IMG/VR virus record: IMGVR_UViG_3300043449_002675
Location: 27,969-91,968 of that record
Reading direction: 5' to 3' (one strand)
Length of the DNA stretch: 64,000 bases
Source of the DNA: a virus
Shown: positions 27,969 through 64,000 of the stretch, one piece after another
How the letters are laid out: every line of letters begins with the position of its first letter
Numbering within the stretch: position 1 is the stretch's first letter
Translations under genes and position numbers: made by a program
Notes under the pieces: generated by a model
What the model saw: only the letters and a program-made list of their open reading frames with translations
The model's database searches: none
Told to the model about the DNA's origin: nothing

Positions 27969-28217
27969 ATGGCAGTACTTATTGAACCAAGTAATTTGAA
28001 AGTGATCAGCCAAAATGGACAGGTCACATTAGCCCTGCAGATTGAGTTAAATATCAATCTCAACAGCAACGTCACGACTACCGATGCTGGAAATAGTGGA
28101 GGTAGCCACAATTTCAAAACCAGCACAACACCACTCAAAAACGCTCAAGATGAAGAAAAAACAGAATGGTTGGTCCCTGATTTTACAGCTAAAGAAAAGG
28201 TTAAGTTTGGCAAATGA
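27969..28217 (+). CDS. Small hypothetical protein upstream of the actin homologue
   Basis: Beta-strand N-terminus, low-complexity linker, C-terminal WLVPDF...VKFGK motif. Confidence 0.6.
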   Translation: MAVLIEPSNLKVISQNGQVTLALQIELNINLNSNVTTTDAGNSGGSHNFKTSTTPLKNAQDEEKTEWLVPDFTAKEKVKFGK

Positions 28218-28264
28218 GGGGAGCATATGGCAACAATAGTCCTAGAAAAGAGAAAGGCAAAAAT

Positions 28265-29278
28265 ATGGCAGTTTCAGTTGACGTAGGCACTTATACATTG
28301 GTATCTTGTAAAAGAGATGCCGATAATAATTTTGTCTTCAAGAAAGAAATTAATGCATTTCTTGAATTGCCTTTGGAAAATCGTTTCGTATTTAACATGA
28401 TGAAACAGGCTGGAGTACCGCTAATTGAGCGTGAAAATGTTGCTTATGCACTTGGCGAAGCTGCGGTAAATATGGCATATACTCTACCAAGTCTAGAGCT
28501 AAAGCGACCCATGAAAGATGGCTGCGTAAATCCAAGGGAAAAAGACGCATTCCAAATTATGTCTATTATGTTACACTCATTAATTGAACCGGTTTCAAAA
28601 GATGGCGAAACACTTTATTATTGCGTTCCCGCAAATGCCATCAATCAGGACACAGATGCTGATTATCATCAGAAAGTTATAGAATCAATTTTCCGCAGCT
28701 ATGAAAGTGAACAAGGATTCAAAGTAACACCAAAGCCAATTAATGAAGCTTTGGCTTTGGTTTACTCGGAATTAGCAAATAAAATGTTTACTGGCGTTGG
28801 AATCAGCTGCGGCGGCGGCATGGTTAATGTTTGTTACGCCATGTATGGCAATCCTATATTCCAGTTTGCCATAGTAAATTCTGGCGACTGGATTGACCGT
28901 CAGGCCGCTAAGGCCACAGGCGAATCACCCACTTTCATCAACAAAGAAAAAATGAAGGTAGATCTCACAAAGGAACCAAAAAACTTGGTGGAAAGAGCAA
29001 TAATTACTCAGTACAGACTGATGATTGAAAAAACAATTACTGGAATTAGAGATGGCTTGGCATCTGCAAAGCAATCAGTAAAATCAGAACATCCTGTTGA
29101 TTTTGTTGTTGCTGGTGGAACCAGCATGGCAGTTGGTTTTGTTGAAATATTTACCGAAACTTTGAAGCAGGCTAATCTTAGCATTCAAGTTGGTGATGTA
29201 ATCAGGCCAGCAGAGCCTCTTTACAGCGTTGCCAAGGGATGTTTGATTGCCGCCGAAGCAGCAGACGCAGGAACCTAA
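28265..29278 (+). CDS. Actin-superfamily ATPase, volactin/MreB-like
   Basis: Phosphate-1 DVGT, connect-1 INEALA, phosphate-2 SCGGG, adenosine AGGTS, connect-2 EPLYSVAKG. Confidence 0.88.
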   Translation: MAVSVDVGTYTLVSCKRDADNNFVFKKEINAFLELPLENRFVFNMMKQAGVPLIERENVAYALGEAAVNMAYTLPSLELKRPMKDGCVNPREKDAFQIMSIMLHSLIEPVSKDGETLYYCVPANAINQDTDADYHQKVIESIFRSYESEQGFKVTPKPINEALALVYSELANKMFTGVGISCGGGMVNVCYAMYGNPIFQFAIVNSGDWIDRQAAKATGESPTFINKEKMKVDLTKEPKNLVERAIITQYRLMIEKTITGIRDGLASAKQSVKSEHPVDFVVAGGTSMAVGFVEIFTETLKQANLSIQVGDVIRPAEPLYSVAKGCLIAAEAADAGT

Positions 29279-38040: not shown

Positions 38041-38499
38041 CTAAAGACCCTTTAATATCATCTTATAGTTATCTACATCCTCTCTGCTTTTTTTGATCTG
38101 CTCCTCATAGAATATTTCCATCCATCTTCTATCAGGATCGTCTAACAGACCCAAATTGTCAGAAATACGAGAAGAATAATTTTTTACCACATCCGATTCC
38201 ATTTTGTGAGCGAAAGTCATTAGTTCCTTTAGATCGGTAGAAATAACGTATGGATAATTCGTGTAAACTTCCTCTGCTTCCGTCAAATCTACTCCTAAAC
38301 CCAACAAGGCATTTTGGAATTGGATGACATGCTGAAGCTCTCCCTGAGCTTCTTTTTCAAAAAGCTCTTTAAATTCTTCCCTGTGTGGGCCGCAAACAGT
38401 TGAGGCTGCTGTGGCGTAAAATAGAAGGTGCGTGCGTTCATTCTTTAGGTCGCCAAGCATGAAATTAACAAATAAGGCGTAATCGGCATTCTTCAGCAT
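38041..38499 (-). CDS. Ferritin-like four-helix protein
   Basis: E...EAQGELQH...E...Y...E di-metal-ligand pattern. Confidence 0.7.
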   Translation of the reverse strand: MLKNADYALFVNFMLGDLKNERTHLLFYATAASTVCGPHREEFKELFEKEAQGELQHVIQFQNALLGLGVDLTEAEEVYTNYPYVISTDLKELMTFAHKMESDVVKNYSSRISDNLGLLDDPDRRWMEIFYEEQIKKSREDVDNYKMILKGL

Positions 38500-42009: not shown

Positions 42010-44556
42010 ATGGCAACGCCGATTTGGGCAGACTTTTTTAAAACATGGGATTTTGCATTCGCAAGGGATCCTGTTTCAAGGTCTATTGACCCGAAAGACC
42101 TTGTTGGCGCAGGTATTGGACAGCCAGATGCGATTCCAACATTAAATCCAGACGGAAGCTTTTGGAGCAATTCTGACTCTAGGCTAATTAGATTACGTGA
42201 AACTAATGATTTTATCGATCTTTCAACAGTTTCAAATAGACAAAGCAGATACAAGGAATATGAAAGACTAAGAACAATACCGGAAATTGAGTGTGCCCTA
42301 AATGTTTTTTCAGATGAAGCATGCTTGTCTGGAAAAACTCCTGTAGCAACACCATTTGGTTTTATTCCTATTGAAAAGCTTGCTACAACACATAAAAGCG
42401 ATAAATTTTTAGTATATTGCTACGACTTCACTAAAAAAGATTACGCTCTGGGCTGGGCTCATAGTCCTAGAAAAACCAAAACAGCCGAAACCGTTAATGT
42501 AGTTTTAGATAACGGCAAAGATTTGCAATGCACCCCAGATCATAGAATTTTGATGAGAGATGGCACTTGGAAATATGCCGGTGACTTGAAGGAAGGCGAT
42601 TTATTAATGCCTTTTTACAGGAACCCAGTAAATCAATTTGCAAACAATTTGCCTAGTAAACAATATCCAAGAATATTTACTTTTACCCATGGATGGATAC
42701 ATGAGAGACACTTTGTCGATAGTTGGAGAACTGGTAAAGTTGACAAAAAAATGGAGAGAATTGCTCTCTACGGAAGATTACTTGCACAAGATCTAAATAT
42801 GAATCAAATCGCACAACAAGCGGATTGCGATTGGAAAACTGTGAAAAACAGATTGCGTTCTGAGGGCCACACAGTAGATGAACTTAGATGGCTGGCAAGG
42901 CACAAAGATCACAGGAGAGTATTGGGTGTTTTTAAAGGCGAAGTTCAAGATGTTTATGACTTAACAGTTGAAGAGCACCATAATTTCGCAACAGATTCAA
43001 CAATAGTTCATAATTGCCAGAAAGACAGCGATGGGAATGTTGTACAGGTGCATTGTGCGGATGAAGATGTGAAAATGGAGATAGAATTCCTGTTTTTGCA
43101 CAGGAATATGATCAATCTAAACAGAAGAATTTGGTCTGATTTCAAGAGCATGTTGCTGTATGGGGATTTGTTTTATGAGTTAGTAATAAACTTGGATGAT
43201 CCCAAAGAAGGTGTCATGAAGATCACTCGCCTTCCTCCTGAATCCATGTACAGAATTGAAACAACAAAGGGAAGAGTCGTTGAATTTCAACAATCTAAAG
43301 AAGGCCCTGATTATCAGTCATTGACTAAAGCTCCAGTTGTACATGCCACAGATCAAGAAATCGCTATGGCTACAGCCATACGATTCAGTCCTGAACAAGT
43401 GGTACACGCCCGCTTGGGTGATGACAGGAGAACATTCTACCCTTATGGTGTGAGCATAGTAGAGCCAGCCAGAGGGCCTGCCAATCAATTAAGACTCATG
43501 GAAGACTCAATGTTGGTTTATAGACTTGCAAGAAGTCCGGAAAGAAGAGTGTTTTATATTGATGTTGGTCAGTTGCCTCCTTTTAAAGCAGAGGCTTTCG
43601 TAGAAAGATTGAAAGATCAATTCCGCAAAAAGAAAGTAAGTCATCACCAAGGGCAAGCCGGCGGTTATAACCCTAATGCAGTTGATGAAAAGTACCACGC
43701 CCCCGCTGTAGATGAAGATTTCTGGCTGCCTATCAGACCAAATTCCAATACTAAAATTGAAACTTTGCCCGGTGCCCAAAACTTGGGAGAAATTGACGAT
43801 GCAATCTATTTCAGAAATAGGTTATTCACAGCACTACAGTTCCCAAAAAATTACATGAATACAGAAGACCCTCAGCAAACTAAGGTTACTTTAAGTAGCC
43901 AAGATGTTAGAGTGGCAAGGCTTATTGAAAGATTCCAAGCTCCTTACGAAGACATTTTGTGGGAAATAGCTGATAGACATTTGAAACTGAGAGGTTTTCC
44001 AACTGAAACCTATGAAGATTTAAAAATCAAAATGACACAGCCTTCTGAGTGGCGTGAATTAAGCCGTGCAGAGGTTGTTAATGCCAGAATACAAAATGCA
44101 ACTTCTCTTAAGGGCTCTGCTATTTTATCAGATTATGATATATTGACTGGCTGGATGAAATATAGTGAAGAACAAGCCAAAGTATTGACAGCACGTATGA
44201 AAATGCAGAAAATTGAAGATGCCAAATTGCAAGTTCTATCACAAAATCCTGCGCTTCTTGGTGTTGGCATTCCTAGTGACCAAGAAAATCAAGAAAACAA
44301 AATTGGCGCTACGCCCGAAGGCCCGAACAATGAACTTACGCCTGAAGGCTTGCCTAGCACTCCAGAACAACCTGCTGGTGGTGAATTGGGTGGTGAGCAA
44401 CCTCCAGAAAATGCCAAATCAGAACCCTCTGCTGGCTCTCAAAGCACAACAACGCTTCAACAGCCCACTGAAGAGGATTTGGTCAAGTATGATATTGAAA
44501 TACAGAATTACGCCAGCGAAGAAGACATGGAACCGCCGGATTACAGCGAATATTAA
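42010..44556 (+). CDS. Portal protein (T4 gp20-like) with an intein
   Basis: EDSMLVYRLARSPERRVFYIDVGQLP..KAE; EDFWLPIR; TLPGAQNLGEIDD. Confidence 0.95.
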   Translation: MATPIWADFFKTWDFAFARDPVSRSIDPKDLVGAGIGQPDAIPTLNPDGSFWSNSDSRLIRLRETNDFIDLSTVSNRQSRYKEYERLRTIPEIECALNVFSDEACLSGKTPVATPFGFIPIEKLATTHKSDKFLVYCYDFTKKDYALGWAHSPRKTKTAETVNVVLDNGKDLQCTPDHRILMRDGTWKYAGDLKEGDLLMPFYRNPVNQFANNLPSKQYPRIFTFTHGWIHERHFVDSWRTGKVDKKMERIALYGRLLAQDLNMNQIAQQADCDWKTVKNRLRSEGHTVDELRWLARHKDHRRVLGVFKGEVQDVYDLTVEEHHNFATDSTIVHNCQKDSDGNVVQVHCADEDVKMEIEFLFLHRNMINLNRRIWSDFKSMLLYGDLFYELVINLDDPKEGVMKITRLPPESMYRIETTKGRVVEFQQSKEGPDYQSLTKAPVVHATDQEIAMATAIRFSPEQVVHARLGDDRRTFYPYGVSIVEPARGPANQLRLMEDSMLVYRLARSPERRVFYIDVGQLPPFKAEAFVERLKDQFRKKKVSHHQGQAGGYNPNAVDEKYHAPAVDEDFWLPIRPNSNTKIETLPGAQNLGEIDDAIYFRNRLFTALQFPKNYMNTEDPQQTKVTLSSQDVRVARLIERFQAPYEDILWEIADRHLKLRGFPTETYEDLKIKMTQPSEWRELSRAEVVNARIQNATSLKGSAILSDYDILTGWMKYSEEQAKVLTARMKMQKIEDAKLQVLSQNPALLGVGIPSDQENQENKIGATPEGPNNELTPEGLPSTPEQPAGGELGGEQPPENAKSEPSAGSQSTTTLQQPTEEDLVKYDIEIQNYASEEDMEPPDYSEY
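42322..43014 (+). mobile_element. Intein in portal (231 aa)
   Basis: DEA|CLSGKTPV... block A; CTPDHRI block B; DVYDLTVEEHHNF..VHN|C blocks F/G. Confidence 0.92.
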
Positions 44557-46967: not shown

Positions 46968-47639
46968 ATGAACCAGTACCTACTTATTGACTGCTGTACG
47001 CATGGAGGCATTGAGCTTTCCATGAACGAGTCCTCCGAAAGGGGACTGACTAAGTTTCGTGGGAAATTCCAAGAAGCGGAGGCTGTCAACAAAAACAAAC
47101 GCATGTATAGCTACAGCGTACTTGACGAGAATGTAAAGAAATTGAATGAATGTGTAAAAGCAAGAGGTCTTGTGGGTGAGTTAGATCATCCAGAAGATAG
47201 CATTATTCATTTTGAAAAAGCATCACACGTTATTACTAAGTTATGGTGGGAAGGCAATGTCCTCATGGGAGAAGGAGAAATCCTAAACACTCCACATGGC
47301 AAGATATTAAGAGCCCTTATTAACGACGGAGTACGTGTTGGTGTTTCTAGCCGTGGCGTAGGCAACGGCAAGACAAATGAAAATGGTATTCTTGTCATTG
47401 ATGAATCATATAAACTCATCACGTTTGATGTAGTTGCTGATCCATCAACGTTTGCCGCTTTTCAGAAGAAGGTAGGCACAACCAAGGAGAATCAGGAGTA
47501 TTCTCCAGCGGTTTATGATAAATCCCAGAAAAAAAATGAGACCAGAAGCATACATAATGTTAATAAAGATGCTCTGATAGCATGTCTGGGCGGGTTTGTA
47601 AGAGAACAAACTAACAACATAAAAATGAGGTTAGGATAA
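46968..47639 (+). CDS. Prohead protease (T4 gp21-like)
   Basis: NKNKRMY; GELDHP; ILNTPHG; GVSSRGVG; FDVVADPS. Confidence 0.95.
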   Translation: MNQYLLIDCCTHGGIELSMNESSERGLTKFRGKFQEAEAVNKNKRMYSYSVLDENVKKLNECVKARGLVGELDHPEDSIIHFEKASHVITKLWWEGNVLMGEGEILNTPHGKILRALINDGVRVGVSSRGVGNGKTNENGILVIDESYKLITFDVVADPSTFAAFQKKVGTTKENQEYSPAVYDKSQKKNETRSIHNVNKDALIACLGGFVREQTNNIKMRLG

Positions 47640-48562: not shown

Positions 48563-50002
48563 ATGAACGCTAATGCACGTTTTTTGAATGAAGCAAGAGA
48601 ATTAGAGACTCGTTGGAGCAAAACCGGTATTCTAAAGGGCATCGAAGACCCTTATGTCCGCTCTGCTACAGCAGTTCTACTAGAGAACCAGAGACTCATC
48701 AATGAAACAGCAACCGACACATCCGACGTTGCTCAGTTCAAGAGAATCTCTATTCCTCTTGTCCGTCGTATTTATCCCCAGCTAATCGCTAACAAGATTG
48801 TTAGTGTGCAGCCTCTACTTGGCCCAACCGGCTTGGTATACTACCTCCGCTTCCGTTATAGCTCCAACAAGGGCTATATGCAGGGCGCTTCCAACGACAG
48901 CGGCTTCCCCGCTGACGATGTGAACTCCCTCCAGCAGAGGGCTAGTGGTGATGCCAATCTTGACATCTACTACTCCAGCCAGTTCGTCCAGAACGAGAAG
49001 ACCCCTGACACAATCGCTGTGCCAAACGCTACAGTGAACATGGGCAACTTCCAGCACACACCAGTCCTAGCTGGCACAATCACCGGAACCGTTTATCTAA
49101 ACGGCACCGTGACCCAGACCTTCACAGTAGCTAGCTCTGGAACCTTCACATTCAATACCGTTTCCGGTACTGACCTAGCTACAGCTGGCAGCCTTGACCT
49201 AAACACAGGCGGCTTCAGCCTAACTTGGAACGGCACTGCAGCTGGCCCTGTTTATTGCGTAGTCTCCTACGAGTACAACATGGAGTGCAATCAGGACCTC
49301 CCTGAAATCAACCTAGTCGTTGAGTCAGAAGAGATCGCTGCCAAGACCCGCAAATTGAAGGCTGTTTGGTCCTATGAGGCTCAGCAGGACCTCCGCTCTC
49401 AGCACAATCTAGACGCTGAGGCTGAGTTGACCGCTGTTCTCGCTCAGGAAATCAACCTCGAAATCGACCGTGAGTGCGTTCAGGACCTTCGCCAGAACGC
49501 CGGTACTGTCGCTGCTTGGGACCTCGCTACCGCCCTTGGTGATACCATCAAAGAAAAGTATGAGTCTCTCTATGTGAAGATCGTTGAAGTTTCCAACGTT
49601 ATCCACAGGAAGACCCTACGTGGCGGCGCTAACTTCATCGTGACCTCACCTGAAGTTTCCTCAATCTTCGAGACAGCCACCGCAGGTTTCGCACCAGCTC
49701 CTTCTGAGACATTTACTAGCTCACTTGGTATTCAGTACGTCGGTACTGTTGCTAACCGCTATCGTCTCTACAAGGATCCACTATTCCCCACCAACCAATT
49801 GTTGATGGGTTATAAGGGCGACTCCTACATGGATTCGGGCTATTTCTATTGCCCCTATGTACCACTAACACAAACACCAGTTGTGCTAGATCCAGAAAGC
49901 TTCTGCCCACGAAAAGGTATACTTACTAGATATGGCAAGAAATTGCTACGTGAAGGTGCAAAGTTCTATGCCCGTCTATCAATTGCTAACTTTGTTGTCT
50001 AG
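48563..50002 (+). CDS. Major capsid protein (T4 gp23-like)
   Basis: LLENQ; IPLVRR; VSVQP..GPTGLVYYLR; AKTRKLKAVWS.EAQQDL; EINLEIDRE; YCPYVPL; GILTRYG. Confidence 0.97.
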   Translation: MNANARFLNEARELETRWSKTGILKGIEDPYVRSATAVLLENQRLINETATDTSDVAQFKRISIPLVRRIYPQLIANKIVSVQPLLGPTGLVYYLRFRYSSNKGYMQGASNDSGFPADDVNSLQQRASGDANLDIYYSSQFVQNEKTPDTIAVPNATVNMGNFQHTPVLAGTITGTVYLNGTVTQTFTVASSGTFTFNTVSGTDLATAGSLDLNTGGFSLTWNGTAAGPVYCVVSYEYNMECNQDLPEINLVVESEEIAAKTRKLKAVWSYEAQQDLRSQHNLDAEAELTAVLAQEINLEIDRECVQDLRQNAGTVAAWDLATALGDTIKEKYESLYVKIVEVSNVIHRKTLRGGANFIVTSPEVSSIFETATAGFAPAPSETFTSSLGIQYVGTVANRYRLYKDPLFPTNQLLMGYKGDSYMDSGYFYCPYVPLTQTPVVLDPESFCPRKGILTRYGKKLLREGAKFYARLSIANFVV

Positions 50003-51488: not shown

Positions 51489-51560
51489 GCGGGTGTGGCA
51501 TATCGGCTGTGCGTTAGGTTTCCAACCTAATTTAGGTGGGTTCGACTCCCTCCATCCGCT
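51489..51560 (+). tRNA. tRNA-Gly (anticodon TCC), no encoded CCA
   Basis: Acceptor GCGGGTG/CATCCGC; anticodon stem TTAGG/CCTAA with loop TT-TCC-AA; T loop TTCGACT; U73 discriminator; one T-stem mismatch. Confidence 0.88.
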
Positions 51561-51960
51561 TTTCTCTTAACTCATGATGTAATTTTCTGTGGCAATTGCT
51601 ACAGATAGGAATGCATTTTTTAAGTTCAATCAATCCTTTATTAATTGCACCTTCATTGAAAAAAGCTGATACGTCTTTTTCTTTATTATCTTCTGGGTGA
51701 TGAAAGTCTATGCAAGCTGGGTGTGATTCGCCGCAAGCGCATTTGAATTGTTTTTTATATTCTTGCCACCAATCTCTAATTTGTTTTTTCTTTTCGCTAG
51801 CGGCCAAAATATATTTTTCAGAATATTTTTTGTAATGGTTATTAGTATCAACTCTGTGACAAGTTTTGCATTTCGAATGTCTTGTATTTTTTGCTTTGCA
51901 TTTGAAACTGAAATCCTCTAAGGGTTTTTCAGTTTGGCAGGAGTTGCAAAACTTACGCAT
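51532..51960 (-). CDS. HNH endonuclease with N-terminal Zn finger
   Basis: CNSC...CKTC; CACGESHPACIDFHH...CIPICSNCHRKLH. Confidence 0.85.
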   Translation of the reverse strand: MRKFCNSCQTEKPLEDFSFKCKAKNTRHSKCKTCHRVDTNNHYKKYSEKYILAASEKKKQIRDWWQEYKKQFKCACGESHPACIDFHHPEDNKEKDVSAFFNEGAINKGLIELKKCIPICSNCHRKLHHELREKRMEGVEPT

Positions 51961-52023
51961 AAAAAATTGTAAGTAAAAATAAATTAGCGGGCAAAATTTG
52001 CTATAATTATTTTGAGGTGTAAA

Positions 52024-52485
52024 ATGGCTACATTGAATGACTTATTGACTGCACTAAAAAGGGCAAAACCGGAAAGTTTGGTTGGCATTTACACACCAAG
52101 TGGTGTGAGTGTGCCATGTCACTTTCACATAACCGAAATAGGGCAAGCCATAAAAAACTTTGTCGATTGCGGCGGAGTAAAGAGACAAACAACTAATACC
52201 ACATTTCAGGTGTGGGTTGCTGATGACTATGACCACAAACTCACAGTTGAAAAGTTAACTAAGATCATAAATGCTGGGTATGATTTAATTAACCCTGAAG
52301 ATGAAATAGTCGTTGAGTTTGATAATAAATATACTATTGGTCTTTATGGTGTGGAATCTACACAAATACTGGATGAATTTGTGAACATATATTTGAGTAA
52401 GATACAGGCTAATTGTTTAGCGCCTGACAAGTGTGGAATAAAACCAAAAACTGTCACATGTTGTGGCAGTAAGGGGTGCTGCTAA
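52024..52485 (+). CDS. DUF6428-like Cys/His metal-binding protein
   Basis: HFHITEIG...FVDCGG...WVADDYDHKL...CLAPDKCG...CC...CC. Confidence 0.7.
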   Translation: MATLNDLLTALKRAKPESLVGIYTPSGVSVPCHFHITEIGQAIKNFVDCGGVKRQTTNTTFQVWVADDYDHKLTVEKLTKIINAGYDLINPEDEIVVEFDNKYTIGLYGVESTQILDEFVNIYLSKIQANCLAPDKCGIKPKTVTCCGSKGCC

Positions 52486-52595: not shown

Positions 52596-53432
52596 TTAAT
52601 CAATTTCATGTAAAAGCTTATTAGTATTTTCAATGCCTCTCATAAACATAAAGAAGTAGAATATGTTGTAAGTTACTCCGTACAACTTATCCACATACAG
52701 TAAGGTGGATGTAATTGCTCCTACCGTTGGATTAGTATAAACCAAGACAAGCATGATGCATACGTGCATCAGTATGGATAAAGAGTCGTTAAAAAAGAAA
52801 TTTGCAGCGTCTAAATTAGATTTCTTTATGTAATCTGAACCTAGGTTAATTAAGTGTGGTTTGTATTCGAGATTTTCCATCAAAGAATGGTTTATATTTT
52901 CTTTATTGTTTTGTATGTCTAAATCTACTTTTTGTGTTTTAAAGCTGTACACTTTGTTGACAATAATCATAAAGAAAAACAAAACTGTTGCGATCAAGCC
53001 AATTTTATGATCGGTTATGTAGAGCATGGTTAGAGCAGTTCCTGCTCCGATAAAGGAGTTAATTATTTGTGGCAAGCTATATTCGAAAAAGTCTGAATAG
53101 TATCCTACCAGTTGATACCTAGCTGCTATTTTAGCAGGTATCATATTTTTATTTCTTAATATTTGTACTGCTTTTATTGCCTTATCACAAAATATTTTCA
53201 TGAATACAATGGTATCAATTCTTTTAAGGCCATAGCCCAAGATTAATGCAGTTATTTCCGCTATCAGGAGAAAAACAAGGCCGGAATTGTCTTTTATTAG
53301 CAAGCCATCTATGGCCTTACCCAAAAGGTAAGGCATAATCGAAAACAAACCGTACTGTATGATGAGAAGGGAGTAGATTAAGGAAATCTGTAGTTTATTT
53401 TCCTTCAGAATTTCCTTGATCATTTTGTTCAC
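52596..53432 (-). CDS. ABC-exporter-type six-TM domain protein without NBD
   Basis: PYLLGKAIDGLL; DFFEYSLPQII; multiple TM helices. Confidence 0.7.
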   Translation of the reverse strand: MNKMIKEILKENKLQISLIYSLLIIQYGLFSIMPYLLGKAIDGLLIKDNSGLVFLLIAEITALILGYGLKRIDTIVFMKIFCDKAIKAVQILRNKNMIPAKIAARYQLVGYYSDFFEYSLPQIINSFIGAGTALTMLYITDHKIGLIATVLFFFMIIVNKVYSFKTQKVDLDIQNNKENINHSLMENLEYKPHLINLGSDYIKKSNLDAANFFFNDSLSILMHVCIMLVLVYTNPTVGAITSTLLYVDKLYGVTYNIFYFFMFMRGIENTNKLLHEID

Positions 53433-56519: not shown

Positions 56520-57032
56520 ATGAAAAACAGTTTTTTAAAATGGTGGCTTTTGAATGCAACCGTATTTGTATGTTTTGCAATAGCATCATATTTTGGTTTG
56601 CTAAAAGAAATTTATTTAAAAGATAGTAGTTTTCTAACATTTGTTATTATGCTGTTGTATTTTGCAAATAGCGCATATAACGGTTATTTGGCTTGGAATA
56701 TTGATAAAGGTGCGATTTTAGAAGAAGAAGAATCTGATACTGGATGGTTTGTATCCGAAATTTGTTTGTCTCTTGGAATGATTGGAACCGTTATAGGTTT
56801 TATTCAGATGTTAAGTGGATTTGCCAAGCCAGTGGAGGGTGTTCAGGCTTTACAAGCGCTTTTATCAAATATGAGTTATGGTATGGCTACAGCCCTTTAT
56901 ACAACTTTGGGCGGTTTGATATGCGGTAACCTACTTAAATTTCAATGCTTTATGCTTGAAAAGAATTTAGGAAAAAAGAAGGAAAAAGAATGTCAAAAAA
57001 CAGAAACTACGGATCACACACAAGCTTCCTAG
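56520..57032 (+). CDS. MotA/TolQ/ExbB proton-channel family protein
   Basis: LGMIGTVIGFI; GMATALYTTLGG; about 4 TM helices. Confidence 0.85.
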   Translation: MKNSFLKWWLLNATVFVCFAIASYFGLLKEIYLKDSSFLTFVIMLLYFANSAYNGYLAWNIDKGAILEEEESDTGWFVSEICLSLGMIGTVIGFIQMLSGFAKPVEGVQALQALLSNMSYGMATALYTTLGGLICGNLLKFQCFMLEKNLGKKKEKECQKTETTDHTQAS

Positions 57033-59066: not shown

Positions 59067-59503
59067 GAAAGAAGCGCAGCAAAATGCAATTTAAGTACGT
59101 GCAGCTCGCCATCTAAAGAACTATGTCCTGAATTCAGTAAATTTAACTGTAAGTAATTGTTTGTTTTTTTGTTTCTTAACACACCATCTATGCAAATCAT
59201 ATTTTTTCTAGCATTACACATATTTGTCTTTATTGTCTCGAAAAGATGGTAATTCGAGGAGTTTGCCTTGAGTTTTAGCGAGACACATCCGCCTTCAATG
59301 CTGTATACATTTTTGAATCCTTTTGCTTTATAGTAACTGTTATAGTTGTATATAGCATCTTTTTTGTACATAGAAACTTCGGCGCTGTCAATGTCGAAGC
59401 CGAAAATAAATAGGTTTCTATGCCAAAATTCCATTCTTTTATGAGGAAGATCACGATAAATATTATTGGGTTCATCATATACATTAAAAACGGTTGGTTT
59501 CAT
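59063..59503 (-). CDS. Hypothetical protein
   Basis: GAGG SD before ATG 59503. Confidence 0.5.
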   Translation of the reverse strand: MKPTVFNVYDEPNNIYRDLPHKRMEFWHRNLFIFGFDIDSAEVSMYKKDAIYNYNSYYKAKGFKNVYSIEGGCVSLKLKANSSNYHLFETIKTNMCNARKNMICIDGVLRNKKTNNYLQLNLLNSGHSSLDGELHVLKLHFAALLS

Positions 59504-59523
59504 ATTCAAACCTCGGGGGCACG

Positions 59524-60090
59524 GTGAAGAAAATTTATCGCAAACGTATAAAAAACGAATCGATAAAAATAAACTTACCAGAAGTGCAACAAAAAACACA
59601 TTTTAGCTGTGCAGCAGCGGTGGTGCATAGTATTTGCAGCTATTGGGGTCTGCAATTACCGAGTCACTATGATTATTTTCCGCATTTGGAAACAGATGAG
59701 TCATACGGAACTTTGCCTCAAAAAATTGCAAAATATTTTAAGTCCACAGGACTGACAGCATCTATCCAGTATAATATGACAATCAAAAATCTTTGTCAAG
59801 AAATAAATCAAGGAAGACCAGTTATTTTAGCTTTACAAGCTTGGGGGAATCCCAAGCATTATGCACGAACTGGTAGTGGTCATTATGTTGTTGCCATAGG
59901 TTTTGATGAAAAAAATATTTATTTTGAGGACCCATGGTTAAATTGCTCAAGAGGTTTTATTCCTAAAAGCGAATTACTTAAACGCTGGCATGATATGGAT
60001 TACATGGGAGTGACACATAATCGCATGGGCATAATTGTATCACACAAGAAAAAGCCAACATATCCATTTACTGCCAAAAAGATTAACTAA
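59524..60090 (+). CDS. Peptidase C39-like cysteine protease
   Basis: QQKTHFSCAAA; GHYVVAIGFD; IYFEDP. Confidence 0.85.
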   Translation: MKKIYRKRIKNESIKINLPEVQQKTHFSCAAAVVHSICSYWGLQLPSHYDYFPHLETDESYGTLPQKIAKYFKSTGLTASIQYNMTIKNLCQEINQGRPVILALQAWGNPKHYARTGSGHYVVAIGFDEKNIYFEDPWLNCSRGFIPKSELLKRWHDMDYMGVTHNRMGIIVSHKKKPTYPFTAKKIN

Positions 60091-60694
60091 ATTCAATTCT
60101 TTTATAAACAGGCAATTTTTGCCCAATCAAATGCATAAATCTAATTTTGTTTTGATCTTTAAAAGAAATTATTTTGCTTCCGCCAAAGTTTTTTATTTCT
60201 CCAGCAATTCCAATTATTTTAAAGTAATCGTGAATATTATTAACTGAATTTTCGTCTAATCTGCTTATTCTCAAAGACACGTTATTTTTTGTAACATTAC
60301 CTTTGTCCATAAACCAGCAGGCCAAGCCAAAGTCTTGCAACATATCTAGCCATTCCATGCTTATGTGTTTTTTGTTTTTCTTGTAACAAAGATCATAAAA
60401 CTCATTCCAGCATGGGCAGCTAATGCTGTTCCACCTGAAACTGTCTTTATCAGCAACAAAAGATTTAGATCTAGAAAAGCGTTGCAATTCATATGCTTTG
60501 CATCGAATCCATGTGCCGCCTTTGGAAATACTTTCACGCATTTGAAAATGCGGGTTCTTACTTTTTTTTGGGTTTATTATGCTTGAATTTCCTAACAAAG
60601 TCCCAAGTATCAATTGTTTTTCTCTGTTTGTAAATATTAGCTTTCTTAGGCCATCTCCATCATTTTGCCATTGATCCATCATTTTATACCTCAT
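60083..60694 (-). CDS. LAGLIDADG-family protein with degenerate catalytic sites
   Basis: QLILGTLLGNSSI and GLACWFMDKG, versus canonical G.LLGDG and W.MDDG. Confidence 0.75.
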   Translation of the reverse strand: MRYKMMDQWQNDGDGLRKLIFTNREKQLILGTLLGNSSIINPKKSKNPHFQMRESISKGGTWIRCKAYELQRFSRSKSFVADKDSFRWNSISCPCWNEFYDLCYKKNKKHISMEWLDMLQDFGLACWFMDKGNVTKNNVSLRISRLDENSVNNIHDYFKIIGIAGEIKNFGGSKIISFKDQNKIRFMHLIGQKLPVYKRIEFS

Positions 60695-60705
60695 ATAAAA
60701 AATAT

Positions 60706-60751
60706 ATAGTAGTTTAACAAAATAAAAGATAGTAGTTTAACAAAATAAAAG
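60706..60751. repeat. Perfect 23-bp tandem duplication
   Basis: ATAGTAGTTTAACAAAATAAAAG x2. Confidence 0.95.
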
Positions 60752-60787
60752 TGCGTCAAAACCCTATTTTTAAAGGCTTTAACGCAC
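60742..60787 (-). terminator. Rho-independent terminator after the C1 peptidase gene
   Basis: Minus strand GTGCGTTAAAGCCT...GGGTTTTGACGCAC stem (G-U pairs favour minus) followed by TTTTATTTT. Confidence 0.7.
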
Positions 60788-60807
60788 AATTTAAACTATG
60801 ACAAAAA

Positions 60808-62871
60808 TTAAATTTTCCAGCGTAATTTTCTTAGCGGAAATCCTTGAACTGCGCTGTAGCAGAATGAGTCATCTTGTTTGAGCATTTTGTCAATAACAGA
60901 CCAGTGTGCATAGAATCCGGCAGGACTTGGCTCTCCCGGTCCTATATTAGAAGTTCCCATATATGTGCCCCAAGAATTTAAAATAAATCCATGTTCTTCG
61001 CCATCTATAGTAGCGTAGCCAATTATGGCCATTTGATGCGCCCAAGATCCTGATGGCTTGCATACACCTTTTGAATTTCTTGATGTTGTAAAACCTTGGT
61101 TGCTAGCAACAGAAATGCCATAGCCTTGTACAAGAGATTTTTTTGCACTTTTCCAATCTGAAATTTGTGTAGTATATTTTACAGGGTGTTCTTTAACTAG
61201 TGGTTCCAAGTCATTTGGAACACCAGAAGCTCCCCATTGTCGGCATAATGATTCGGAGTATTTTTCAAGGTTATATTTTCCGTTTAAGAATGTGCCTCTG
61301 TTGATTATGCCATATTTTCTCACGAAATCTGCACCCCAAGCGCCTATACTTCCGTCTCCTCTACCTAGTCTTCCATTTCCTATTTCGACTCTGCTTCCTC
61401 CATAAACAATTTCTTGGACTAGTGGTTTAAATTCTTCTGCATCTCCTTGGGCTATTTCTGCGCACATCGTATATTCAATAGCGGAACAGCAGCCAAAAGC
61501 TACGCAGTTGTGTACGCCTATTCCTTCAACCACATAGCTATTATCACCCTCTACTTCAAAATTAAACACTTCTCCAGTGTATTTTGTTTCTCCAAGGTAT
61601 GTAATTTTGCGCCATTGTCTATTCTCATCTTGTTGTGGCTTGTTTAATCCGCCACCAGTAGAAATGATTAGATCATATCTTCTGCGTCTTGATTTTACGC
61701 CATGACTAACTTTCGGATCGCTTTTTCTTATAACTGGCGATAGACCAAGTTTATTTGTGATGTCGAACATATTGAGAGCTAGTTCGTGGGATACAGTAAC
61801 GCCTTGAATGCATTTCTTGGCAGAACTAACATGCCCATCACCGTCCATCCAGCCTCTAAATGTTTCTTTGAGAAACTTTAAAGGTCCGCATAAAAGATCT
61901 TTATGGATGGCTTTATTTCCGCTGCCATTGCCGCATAATTTTTCAAATAAATTGCTCCACTCTCTGCCGTGCAAAATAACTTTGCAGGTATTTTTTTCCG
62001 GTATTTCCCTTATTCTGGCAGAGGCATTCAATTGATTTTTGAGAATATCGACAACATCTTTTGCAAGGGTGTCTTTTTCATCAATATTGAATGTCCAGCA
62101 AACTTTGTTTTTGTCTGTATTTCCCTCAGCAAGGAAAAGTCCTATAAGTCTGCCGAAATCTTCTGTTAATTCTATTTCTTCTGGCATAGGAGATATTTGT
62201 ATTACTGATTTTTTCCTGCCCATGACACTTCCAGAAACACGGCAAATTTCTTTTCTTGTAATTTTTACATTCCAAGATGCATAATCTTGTGTTTTTATGG
62301 AAGTTTTGTTTTCTGGAATATACTTAGGACAGGAGACATAATCTCCTATTTTCAGCTCATCCATTCTTACATACCCTCTTTGTGTAAGAATTGGGTGTTC
62401 TGCGGTTGCTTGCAACCCATAATGCCCGTGGCATTTGAAAGATAACAAAGATTTGTTTTCTTCCCTTAGGAAACAAGTTGTTACCTTTCCAATATTTCCT
62501 TCGGCAGTAAGAACTTTATCCCTCAGCTTGATATCTTCTATATTTTTGTAAGAACCGTCTGCCATTCTTATTTTAGTACCTGCTGGGAAACAACTGCCCA
62601 CTTGTCCCTGATTTCTTGGAGGCAAATTGTCTCCAGTAACCATTTTTGCGAAGTCCCATAGATAGCAATGATCGGGCAGTTCATCATCCGCATATCCAGC
62701 TGCTGGTGTATCGCTAAAGTTTTTAATATCAAATGTAGCTAGCGTTTCTTGTACAGCTATAGGGTCATCAACCCAGCCGAAAGCAACGTCATTAGGAACA
62801 TATGTAATAGAATGGTCAAATCCTTCACTGGAAAGCAAGTCCATGTATGTTTGATATGCTGGATTATCCAT
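60808..62871 (-). CDS. Papain-like (C1) cysteine protease with an intein
   Basis: Spliced form reads QGQVGS-CVAFG; WAHQMAIIG; ILNSWG catalytic His/Asn motifs. Confidence 0.88.
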   Translation of the reverse strand: MDNPAYQTYMDLLSSEGFDHSITYVPNDVAFGWVDDPIAVQETLATFDIKNFSDTPAAGYADDELPDHCYLWDFAKMVTGDNLPPRNQGQVGSCFPAGTKIRMADGSYKNIEDIKLRDKVLTAEGNIGKVTTCFLREENKSLLSFKCHGHYGLQATAEHPILTQRGYVRMDELKIGDYVSCPKYIPENKTSIKTQDYASWNVKITRKEICRVSGSVMGRKKSVIQISPMPEEIELTEDFGRLIGLFLAEGNTDKNKVCWTFNIDEKDTLAKDVVDILKNQLNASARIREIPEKNTCKVILHGREWSNLFEKLCGNGSGNKAIHKDLLCGPLKFLKETFRGWMDGDGHVSSAKKCIQGVTVSHELALNMFDITNKLGLSPVIRKSDPKVSHGVKSRRRRYDLIISTGGGLNKPQQDENRQWRKITYLGETKYTGEVFNFEVEGDNSYVVEGIGVHNCVAFGCCSAIEYTMCAEIAQGDAEEFKPLVQEIVYGGSRVEIGNGRLGRGDGSIGAWGADFVRKYGIINRGTFLNGKYNLEKYSESLCRQWGASGVPNDLEPLVKEHPVKYTTQISDWKSAKKSLVQGYGISVASNQGFTTSRNSKGVCKPSGSWAHQMAIIGYATIDGEEHGFILNSWGTYMGTSNIGPGEPSPAGFYAHWSVIDKMLKQDDSFCYSAVQGFPLRKLRWKI
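61507..62592 (-). mobile_element. Intein with LAGLIDADG homing endonuclease (362 aa)
   Basis: S|CFPAGTKIRMADG; ATAEHPI; LIGLFLAEG and GWMDGDG; VFNFEVEGDNSY..VHN|C. Confidence 0.93.
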
Positions 62872-63571
62872 TAAGTCCCCCTAGAATTTTCGCAACTCTG
62901 TTGAATTGTTCTTTGCATTTTTTTCTTAAATTATCATCTAAAACTGCATTAGGATCTGTGCCTAATACCTTGTCTAATTCGTTTGCAAGCACCTCTCTAA
63001 TTGGTTCAATTTTGCCTGCTTTTAGGTTTTGATAAGAAATAGATCGTATGGTTGAATAAAGTTGTCCAAGATTTTTGTATTTGGGATTATCAACTTCAAC
63101 TAGTGCCAACTGATATACTTGCGCCAGCTGTTTTATCGAATTTTCCTTATCGGACTCTTGCAGACCTCCGTAAATACCAGCAACATTATCTCTTAGTTCA
63201 TCTGGTTTGCTTGGATCGGGAGGTGTAGGAGGTGTTGGGGGCGTAGGCGGAGGGTTGGGGTTATCGCCAACAACGACCGTGGTAAATGCGGGATCGGTTG
63301 GAACATTATTTATGCTGGTGTATGCAAGAAGTCTGTAGGAGCCGTTTTTTGTAGCTACGACAACAGTAGTTTTTTTGTCGGCTAGTAAATTGGCGGGAAA
63401 TACGTTCAATCCGGGATCAAGAGCCACGAATTTTACGACTTCTCCCTTGGTTTGTGCGGTAATTGGCACAAAAGCTCCAACTTGTGCTTTTATTTGATCT
63501 GGAAGTAAAATTTCTGGTCCGACGCCTACCTGAGAAAATGCCAAAAGCGCAGCTATAATTAATGAATTCAT
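62864..63571 (-). CDS. Signal-peptide protein with Pro-rich linker, upstream of and overlapping the C1 protease gene
   Basis: MNSLIIAALLAFSQ; beta domain, then PNPPPTPPTPPTPPDP, then helical domain; CATAAATA at 63601-63608 on minus. Confidence 0.7.
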   Translation of the reverse strand: MNSLIIAALLAFSQVGVGPEILLPDQIKAQVGAFVPITAQTKGEVVKFVALDPGLNVFPANLLADKKTTVVVATKNGSYRLLAYTSINNVPTDPAFTTVVVGDNPNPPPTPPTPPTPPDPSKPDELRDNVAGIYGGLQESDKENSIKQLAQVYQLALVEVDNPKYKNLGQLYSTIRSISYQNLKAGKIEPIREVLANELDKVLGTDPNAVLDDNLRKKCKEQFNRVAKILGGLNG

Positions 63572-63736
63572 GTCATTCTCCGTTTCAAAAGTGCCTTAAT
63601 TATTTATGTTTTACATAATAATTTTGTTATAGATTTATGATAAATTACATTTGGAAGGAATTTTTTCAAAAATTAATTTACCCATTTATAGATAATGCGC
63701 CTATTGAATTTTTTTTACTTTTACGGAGGCTTAATT

Positions 63737-64000
63737 ATGGGCGCTACTTCAGTTACAGGAACAGGACCCGGATCAGCGTTTGGATGGAACAAGGGCTCAC
63801 AGGAAATGACCCTAGGCGTTAGCCATCTAATTGGACCACACGTTGTGGCCGCAGGCGTTACACCACTAGTTGGCGGCGCAGCTACTGTCTATTTGCCATT
63901 CTTGACATCGGGCGCTATGGCAGTGCCACCCTATGTCACATCTGGCACACCAGCTCCTCAGCCAGCTTTCTGCGTTTTCGCAAGCGATAACACAAGCGGT
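63737..64000 (+). CDS. Partial ORF running off the window, probable abundant virion protein
   Basis: GGAGG SD; MGATSVTGTGPGSA...; codon usage like MCP. Confidence 0.65.
   Translation, partial: MGATSVTGTGPGSAFGWNKGSQEMTLGVSHLIGPHVVAAGVTPLVGGAATVYLPFLTSGAMAVPPYVTSGTPAPQPAFCVFASDNTSG

Follow-up and report, generated by a model that had tools for sequence, protein, structure and literature searches.

We analysed a 64,000-nucleotide stretch of virus DNA (hereafter the window), which spans bases 27969-91968 of the 91,968-base IMG/VR record IMGVR_UViG_3300043449_002675. On its minus strand, at 60808..62871, lies the gene of a precursor of 687 amino acids (aa) plus a stop codon, a predicted C1 papain-like peptidase that is split by an intein. 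From sequence comparison and structure modelling, this insert is very probably a selfish, optional class-1 LAGLIDADG intein that spreads among phage C1-like peptidase genes, and not a regulatory device.

The frame is open across all 687 codons, and the precursor could be divided into three parts, all on the minus strand. The 93-aa N-extein (aa 1-93, 62593..62871) comprises an N-terminal extension and ends with the oxyanion-glutamine motif NQGQVGS. It is followed by a 362-aa intein (aa 94-455, 61507..62592; CFPAGTKI...GIGVHN) and by a 232-aa C-extein (aa 456-687, 60811..61506), which starts with CVAFGCC and holds the remainder of the papain-like catalytic domain. With a slash marking the junction, the DNA reads ...ggc agt/tgt ttc cca gca ggt... 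at the N-terminal side and ...gta cac aac/tgc gta gct ttt ggc... at the C-terminal side. The intein alone matched the Pfam families Intein_splicing (PF14890, 40.6 bits with a cut-off of 35.8), Hom_end_hint (PF05203, 35.2 bits, cut-off 32.1) and LAGLIDADG_3 (PF14528, 37.6 bits, cut-off 22.5). It begins at Cys94 (CFPAGT), carries the block-B T-x-x-H motif as TAEH and the block-F Asp in EGDNSY, and ends in GVHN, the terminal His-Asn being followed by the +1 Cys. Both LAGLIDADG motifs of the homing endonuclease are retained, as an earlier reading of the bare sequence (the original prediction) had stated: the first is LIGLFLAEGN with its acidic Glu (62119..62148, minus strand) and the second WMDGDGH with its acidic Asp (61831..61851, minus strand). 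By these sequence motifs, the insert was confirmed as a class-1 intein with a nested, two-motif LAGLIDADG homing endonuclease. The G+C content gave no useful signal, with values of 0.376 for the intein, 0.419 and 0.408 for the exteins, and 0.387 for the window.

Alignment with 11 intein-free homologues revealed one clean gap of 362 residues, with the junction at NQGQVGS/CVAFG. Four residues were invariant in the window and all 11 homologues: Q88 in the N-extein (codon 62608..62610), C456 (codon TGC, 61504..61506), and H612 and N632 in the C-extein (codons 61036..61038 and 60976..60978), with all four codons on the minus strand. One natural intein-free allele, protein P0001, is 325 aa long, which is exactly 93+232, and its NQGQVGS-CVAFG sequence is unbroken. 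The original prediction had placed the intein exactly before the catalytic cysteine and had proposed a search for intein-free alleles; the gap and the junction DNA bear out the position, and P0001 and the 11 aligned homologues are such alleles.

The identity of the host enzyme was examined at the levels of sequence profile and fold. A search with the C-extein returned 402 proteins of 127-406 aa at an expect value (E) of <=0.001, with P0001 as the best match. Against the Peptidase_C1 family (PF00112), the window precursor scored 20.7 bits, equal to the cut-off, and P0001 scored 24.9 bits; the family was matched at E<=0.01 by 63 of 63 intein-free members. Residues 84-278 of P0001 fell on PF00112 positions 16-196, with its catalytic cysteine (Cys94 in the numbering of P0001) at profile position 26. 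In a profile built from the 63 intein-free alleles, 'nqgqvGsCvafGt' was aligned with 'NQGGCGSCWAFST' of ginger protease II, whose motif is NQGGCGSCWAF, and with 'DQGQCGSCWAFST' of actinidin; the His and Asn-Ser-Trp (NSWG) motifs aligned too. Cys456 therefore corresponds to Cys25 of papain, and Gln88 is the Gln19 equivalent. Two further claims of the original prediction thus hold in this alignment, namely that the +1 splicing nucleophile is also the nucleophile of the protease and that the oxyanion glutamine lies on the opposite extein.

The AlphaFold2 model of P0001 had a predicted local distance difference test (pLDDT) score of 92.1 and a predicted template modelling score of 0.90. Foldseek with this model gave 278 matches in the PDB at E<=0.001, and all 50 of the 50 matches listed were papain-family structures with a probability of 1.00. 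In VIA-align, the best match was xylellain, the C1A peptidase of Xylella fastidiosa (3ois_A; Z 23.1, 243 aligned residues, root mean square deviation 3.2), with an aligned span of model residues 24-314 that takes in the N-terminal extension. Papain (1ppn) followed with a Z of 19.0 over 198 of its 212 residues, aligned to model residues 65-313. The Gln/Cys/His/Asn set aligns with that of xylellain and the procathepsins; the phage enzyme differs from them in its low identity (15-21%) and in the coupling of its gene to that of an Ig-like partner, described below. These results point to a phage papain-family (C1, clan CA, xylellain-like) cysteine peptidase as the predicted host. In addition, the N-terminal extension (approximately residues 24-64) aligned in VIA-align with the pro-region of xylellain and with part of the procathepsin propeptides, and these aligned ranges make it the conventional candidate for zymogen control. 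No family for the phage peptidase was found in NCBIfam, PHROG or PADLOC, and neither blastn of 60000-64000 nor tblastn of P0001 gave a match among 50,697 deposited phage records, a set from which records near the genome of the window were possibly excluded.

From this anatomy the following course of events may be proposed. The intein would have invaded the peptidase gene at its most conserved spot, the codon of the catalytic cysteine. The precursor could not act as a protease, since an insert of 362 residues keeps the oxyanion Gln88 away from the nucleophile Cys456. Excision would proceed through an N-S acyl shift at Cys94, trans-thioesterification onto Cys456, cyclisation of Asn455 and an S-N shift. 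The spliced product would carry the native NQGQVGS-CVAFG active site, identical to that of the intein-free alleles. The endonuclease would then cut intein-free alleles of co-infecting phages at the conserved site, and the intein would be copied into them (homing). We infer that splicing and homing take place and that splicing is constitutive. The host gene had been predicted to be conserved enough to sustain homing, and the data agree with this: there are 402 homologues and 209 viral stretches with a relative, the catalytic motif is conserved, and codon positions 1 and 2 around the insertion site are 0.84-1.00 conserved at most codons.

The state of the intein in its relatives was then compared. 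Among 71 aligned same-site inteins, Cys1, the block-B Thr, the block-B His, the block-F Asp and the terminal His-Asn were each present in 71 of 71. The LAGLIDADG Glu was found in 67 of 71 and the Asp in 68 of 71, and the misses were gaps in four mini-inteins of 130-237 aa at the same site (P0199, 237 aa; P0203, 135 aa; P0206, 163 aa; P0207, 130 aa), in which the endonuclease is partly or wholly deleted. By their sequences, these mini-inteins look like late stages of the homing cycle, and invariant splicing residues together with endonuclease-less mini-inteins form the classic homing-cycle picture. The same residues bear on whether the window could hold a dead insertion, with an intein that has lost the ability to splice in a gene reduced to an inactive remnant. 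This is highly improbable, given that the 687-codon frame is open and that all splicing residues are intact and invariant in the 71 relatives. Moreover, the exteins are 81% and 93% identical to those of the intein-free allele, with the catalytic residues all kept, and the same intein-bearing gene recurs at >=99% identity in contigs from the runs of three other studies (X2 and X4; X5; X6). One of these, record 10 of X4 (62462-62742), reads through the N-terminal junction into the intein.

The intein and its exteins gave conflicting trees. In 19 of 19 comparisons with intein-bearing alleles, the intein was more similar to that of the window than either extein was. For instance, P0122 and the window share 96% identity in the intein, 62% in the N-extein and 83% in the C-extein. 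The closest extein relative of the window is the intein-free P0001 (N-extein 81%, C-extein 93%), and the exteins of P0122 are 90% and 91% identical to those of the intein-free P0002. Window/P0001 and P0122/P0002 are thus sister pairs with and without the intein. An IQ-TREE phylogeny of whole exteins was built from 22 rows, namely 14 of P0001-P0016 and P0121-P0128; P0009 and P0010 were left out because the motif pattern missed their junction. This tree contained four such sister pairs, with support values of 99, 99, 100 and 90, and the approximately unbiased test rejected an extein clade of the window with P0122 (log-likelihood difference 144.9, p 4.5e-47). A FastTree phylogeny of 132 C-exteins comprised 112 of P0001-P0120 (eight were dropped by the same pattern) and 20 intein-bearing members. 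In it, the intein label needed 10 changes, at least 9 of which were forced by well-supported branches, compared with 18.9 for shuffled labels. In the intein tree (148 rows), the intein of the window grouped with those of P0122, P0123, P0124 and P0125 (support 99, 95, 99), and the label of the host subfamily changed 7 times, at least 3 of them forced. As judged from these phylogenies, the conflict shows repeated horizontal movement or precise loss, and either way the intein appears dispensable to the host gene.

This distribution also bears on the claim of the original prediction that splicing acts as a built-in, possibly redox-sensitive zymogen switch. In such a domesticated conditional switch, a Cys94-Cys456 disulfide, a metal or temperature, for example, would hold splicing back until a set point in the infection. 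The chemistry would allow it, in that both splice-junction nucleophiles are cysteines and no protease action is expected before splicing. The same site is occupied in many phages, and for the inteins of DnaB and RadA the parts of the literature available to us (PMC6195587, PMC7360933, PMC8557812, PMC5790916) report conditional splicing that depends on oxidation, zinc and temperature. The inteins of mycobacterial DnaB and Pyrococcus RadA, as described in those parts, resemble the peptidase intein in having Cys at both junctions, a feature that would in principle allow trapping by oxidation or zinc; they differ from it in that the peptidase intein is dispensable and horizontally mobile. Retention throughout the host lineage, which would mark a regulatory intein, was not observed, as there are four sister pairs and at least nine forced changes. 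The intein is optional, since four intein-bearing alleles have intein-free sisters, and intein-free alleles predominate. Besides the 402 matches of 127-406 aa, this was apparent in IMG/VR, where 209 viral stretches encode a relative of the peptidase and 80 loci were kept; at least 64 of the 80 had an intein-free gene and 4 an intein-bearing one. Furthermore, inteins that have the endonuclease domain also retain its motifs, and the intein passes between hosts; both are signs of a selfish element. The protease, for its part, already possesses an N-terminal extension alignable with pro-regions. A conditional switch is therefore unlikely. Inactivity before splicing follows from the chemistry, but a regulatory or redox use of splicing is not favoured.

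We next considered how widely the intein lineage occurs. A search with the full-length precursor found 143 proteins at E<=0.001, and the best 120 of the 143 were analysed. The intein aligned end to end with that of the window in 90 of these 120, and a Q-x5/intein/C flank was present in 65 of the 90. As a sequence pattern, this recurrence of the junction before the cysteine among end-complete relatives is far beyond chance. Among 57 diverged hosts without BLAST similarity to the P0001 exteins, 20 matched PF00112 at E<=0.01. In five of these (P0160, P0171, P0174, P0179 and P0180), the PF00112 match starts at position 26-27, directly after the intein, and the site is thus the same. An exhaustive HMMER search with the intein against 1.84 billion representatives gave 7,056 matches at E<=0.001, 2,165 at 1e-10 and 201 at 1e-30. 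The best 150 of these comprised 92 with the strict Q-x5/intein/C arrangement, 38 with other flanks and 20 fragments; among the 38 are several that resemble the motif with its Gln one position nearer, and others from different hosts. Pooling of both lists gave 241 proteins, 152 of which had a Q-x4/5/intein/C flank (x4 or x5) and both exteins. The C-exteins of the 152 fell into two groups that BLAST did not link (113 and 35 members, with the window in the group of 35) and four singletons. The same intein lineage was also found in portal (P0183, P0231), methylase and radical-SAM proteins.

Inteins of other kinds were observed in the same enzymes and on the same contig. In four IMG/VR loci (L046:233-2119, L049:4-1812, L050:3198-5186 and L054:6001-8010), a diverged subfamily of the peptidase carries an intein at the same pre-Cys site that is only 24-25% identical to that of the window and hence belongs to a different lineage. 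The peptidases of these four loci have N-termini with a twin-arginine-like signal, e.g. MNRRDMLKQ.... P0202, a member of the same peptidase family with an intact Cys site, has an intein directly after the catalytic His (GSWSH/C...VHN/CMAIVGY). The contig of the window holds another intein in its portal gene (42010..44556), a 231-aa insert at 42322..43014 on the plus strand with the junctions DEA/CLSGKT...TIVHN/CQKD. It matched PF14890 with 54 bits and gave no LAGLIDADG match in Pfam. It was rejected as a relative of the peptidase intein, as BLAST gave E >= 0.65 and the two are unrelated at that sensitivity.

The strong tie of the lineage to the Q-x5/C site, across two papain-like subfamilies that BLAST does not link, might be taken to mean that the exteins assist splicing. 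His612 and the helix dipole at Cys456 would activate the +1 Cys and speed trans-thioesterification, which would explain the success of the lineage at this site. That unrelated inteins use catalytic sites too (the 24-25% lineage at the same site, and P0202 after the His) is in keeping with this idea. However, a preference for the most conserved codons needs no explanation beyond conservation of the endonuclease target, and the occurrence of the same lineage in portal, methylase and radical-SAM proteins indicates that the protease is not needed. We thus consider extein assistance very unlikely. A broader proposal, to which we give little credence, is that phage papain-like peptidases are a large undescribed home for inteins that target catalytic residues (before the Cys, or after the His as in P0202). 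In the phage of the window, the need for splicing might provide a delay or redox gate against harmful early activity, or the catalytic dyad might drive trans-thioesterification.

Several points weigh against the selfish, mobile intein that we prefer. First, this explanation rests on sequence and structure, and both splicing and endonuclease cleavage are predictions. Second, the C-extein of the window alone scored 19.2 bits with PF00112, just under the 20.7 cut-off, so that assignment to the family depends on the intein-free alleles, the profile and the fold. In addition, the fold model is that of the natural allele P0001, which is 90% identical to the window over the exteins, and not that of the spliced product of the window. 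The tree is unrooted, and repeated precise loss is not formally separable from repeated gain; the higher identity of inteins than of exteins could partly reflect constraint rather than recent transfer. Finally, no intein-free variant of the same phage, and no joint across the intein, was found in the X2, X4, X5 and X6 contigs over 60000-63600, a check that says little as contigs drop rare variants.

The role of the peptidase in the phage was considered from its neighbours and look-alikes. A function as the capsid-maturation (prohead) protease was rejected. Between its portal and major capsid genes, in the head module, the phage has an S77 (gp21-type) prohead protease of its own (46968..47639), and the C1 gene lies outside that module; the C1 peptidase therefore has another role. 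Directly upstream of the peptidase is a partner gene for a protein of 235 aa (62864..63571, minus strand), whose stop overlaps the peptidase ATG by 8 nucleotides. By tblastn, the partner gene was directly upstream in 67 of 80 viral loci, and an overlap of its stop with the peptidase start by 4 or 8 nucleotides was found in 35 of 57 measured pairs. From this arrangement, the peptidase is predicted to be translationally coupled to a conserved gene for an immunoglobulin (Ig)-like partner. The model of the partner (pLDDT 89.3) shows a hydrophobic helix at the N-terminus, together with an Ig-like sandwich, a Pro/Thr linker and a bundle of five helices. In the fold search only the Ig-like part (residues ~26-101) was matched, and generically, by lambda gpV (C-terminal domain) and by a phage SU10 tail protein; the helical half gave nothing clear. 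The partner protein had no match in Pfam, PHROG, NCBIfam or PADLOC, and its Atlas scores of <=0.80 are leads only.

Among viral proteins that resemble the peptidase in structure are some in which a C1 domain is fused to a peptidoglycan-binding or muramidase module. On account of these fusions, an envelope- or virion-associated role for the peptidase may be suggested by analogy, as a lead and no more. Gene neighbourhood as a further clue to function was rejected, because neighbours other than the partner differ between loci (HNH, Sak4, SSB, integrase, glycosyltransferase).

Two more genes lie on the downstream side of the peptidase. The first, directly downstream, encodes a free-standing LAGLIDADG_2 homing endonuclease (60083..60694, minus strand; PF03161, 83 bits). 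The same kind of gene lies downstream of the peptidase in loci L001, L007 and L039, and the peptidase is intein-free in L007 and L039. Kinship of this protein with the endonuclease of the intein was rejected (27% identity over 86 aa, E 0.002 in a single comparison, and different Pfam families), and from its sequence we treated it as an element separate from the intein. The second gene (59494..60090, plus strand) adjoins the homing endonuclease gene and encodes another papain-like cysteine peptidase, which is C39-like (PF13529, 57.5 bits); it is conserved in L001, L007 and L039.

The CheckV completeness rating of the virus record is 18%. The window contains T4-type structural genes, which include gp25- and gp6-like baseplate wedge genes, a T4-type portal, a large terminase and a Gp23 major capsid protein (48563..50002). 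The capsid protein is 74% identical to that of the 595-kb uncultured phage record LR756511.1. Given these structural genes and the capsid identity, the element is by sequence a fragment of a huge T4-like phage.

Other genes of the window were recorded alongside. The sole tRNA gene, a tRNA-Gly with the anticodon TCC (51489..51560, plus strand), abuts and slightly overlaps the listed open reading frame of a free-standing HNH endonuclease (51532..51960, minus strand). A 354-aa protein (28214..29278, plus strand) matches the whole Pfam profile Volactin (PF25216) with an E of 1e-66. Volactins are an actin-like family described in haloarchaea, and their occurrence in a huge phage is unexpected. Four auxiliary genes uncommon in phages are also present: a ferritin-like gene (38041..38499, minus strand), DUF6428 (52012..52485, plus strand), ABC_membrane_3 (52596..53432, minus strand) and a MotA/ExbB-like gene (56520..57032, plus strand).

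The peptidase intein was compared with known systems. Its best sequence matches among solved structures are VMA1-type class-1 inteins, namely PI-SceI (1dfa/1vde), the VMA inteins of Thermococcus/Pyrococcus (7qsu, 7qss) and PI-PkoII (2cw7). They share a HINT domain with Cys1, the block-B T-x-x-H and a terminal His-Asn followed by Cys+1, with a two-motif LAGLIDADG endonuclease nested in it. However, the similarity is weak (E 1.8e-4 to 3e-3), and the host is a phage cysteine peptidase instead of an ATPase or polymerase. Phage terminase and portal inteins (PMC5050341, a survey of mycobacteriophages; 10.1101/2025.01.02.630785, a survey of actinobacteriophages; PMC4760082 for prophage hosts), as far as the available parts of these sources describe them, are likewise mobile, sit in conserved phage genes and are distributed sporadically. 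The likeness to phage portal inteins extends to the portal intein on the same contig and to the lineage members in the portals P0183 and P0231.

The original prediction had also called proteases uncommon as intein hosts. In agreement with this, the intein hosts in the accessible part of PMC4760082 are ATPases, polymerases, terminases and portals, with ClpP and LonB as the only proteases named; for phages it gives terminases and portals. Term look-ups in the main text of PMC5050341 and 10.1101/2025.01.02.630785 found no 'peptidase' or 'papain' hosts, and 'protease' occurred only in a ClpP reference. The chloroplast ClpP intein of Chlamydomonas eugametos and the archaeal LonB inteins, as given in the same part of PMC4760082, are also housed in proteolytic enzymes. 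Those hosts are serine or ATP-dependent proteases of organelles or archaea, whereas here the host is a clan-CA cysteine peptidase whose nucleophile is the +1 residue. Searches of main texts in the open full-text literature found no C1 or papain-like peptidase described as an intein host. The peptidase intein is real, well defined and widespread and has apparently not been described in print; in kind, it is a standard mobile intein in a new host family.

The finding leaves the understanding of the intein mechanism unchanged. It provides a clean natural example of a single cysteine that serves as nucleophile in both splicing and enzyme catalysis. It would thus be a convenient system for asking how an extein active site influences splicing and whether splicing is conditional. 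The lineage also offers new LAGLIDADG endonucleases, as well as inteins able to tolerate a Gly-Ser/Cys-Val junction. Annotation misses such genes as peptidases because their Pfam match is split by the intein, and the protein of the window was barely at the cut-off. Above all, phage papain-like cysteine peptidases would extend by a large family the known range of intein hosts, most of which are replication, repair and packaging ATPases.

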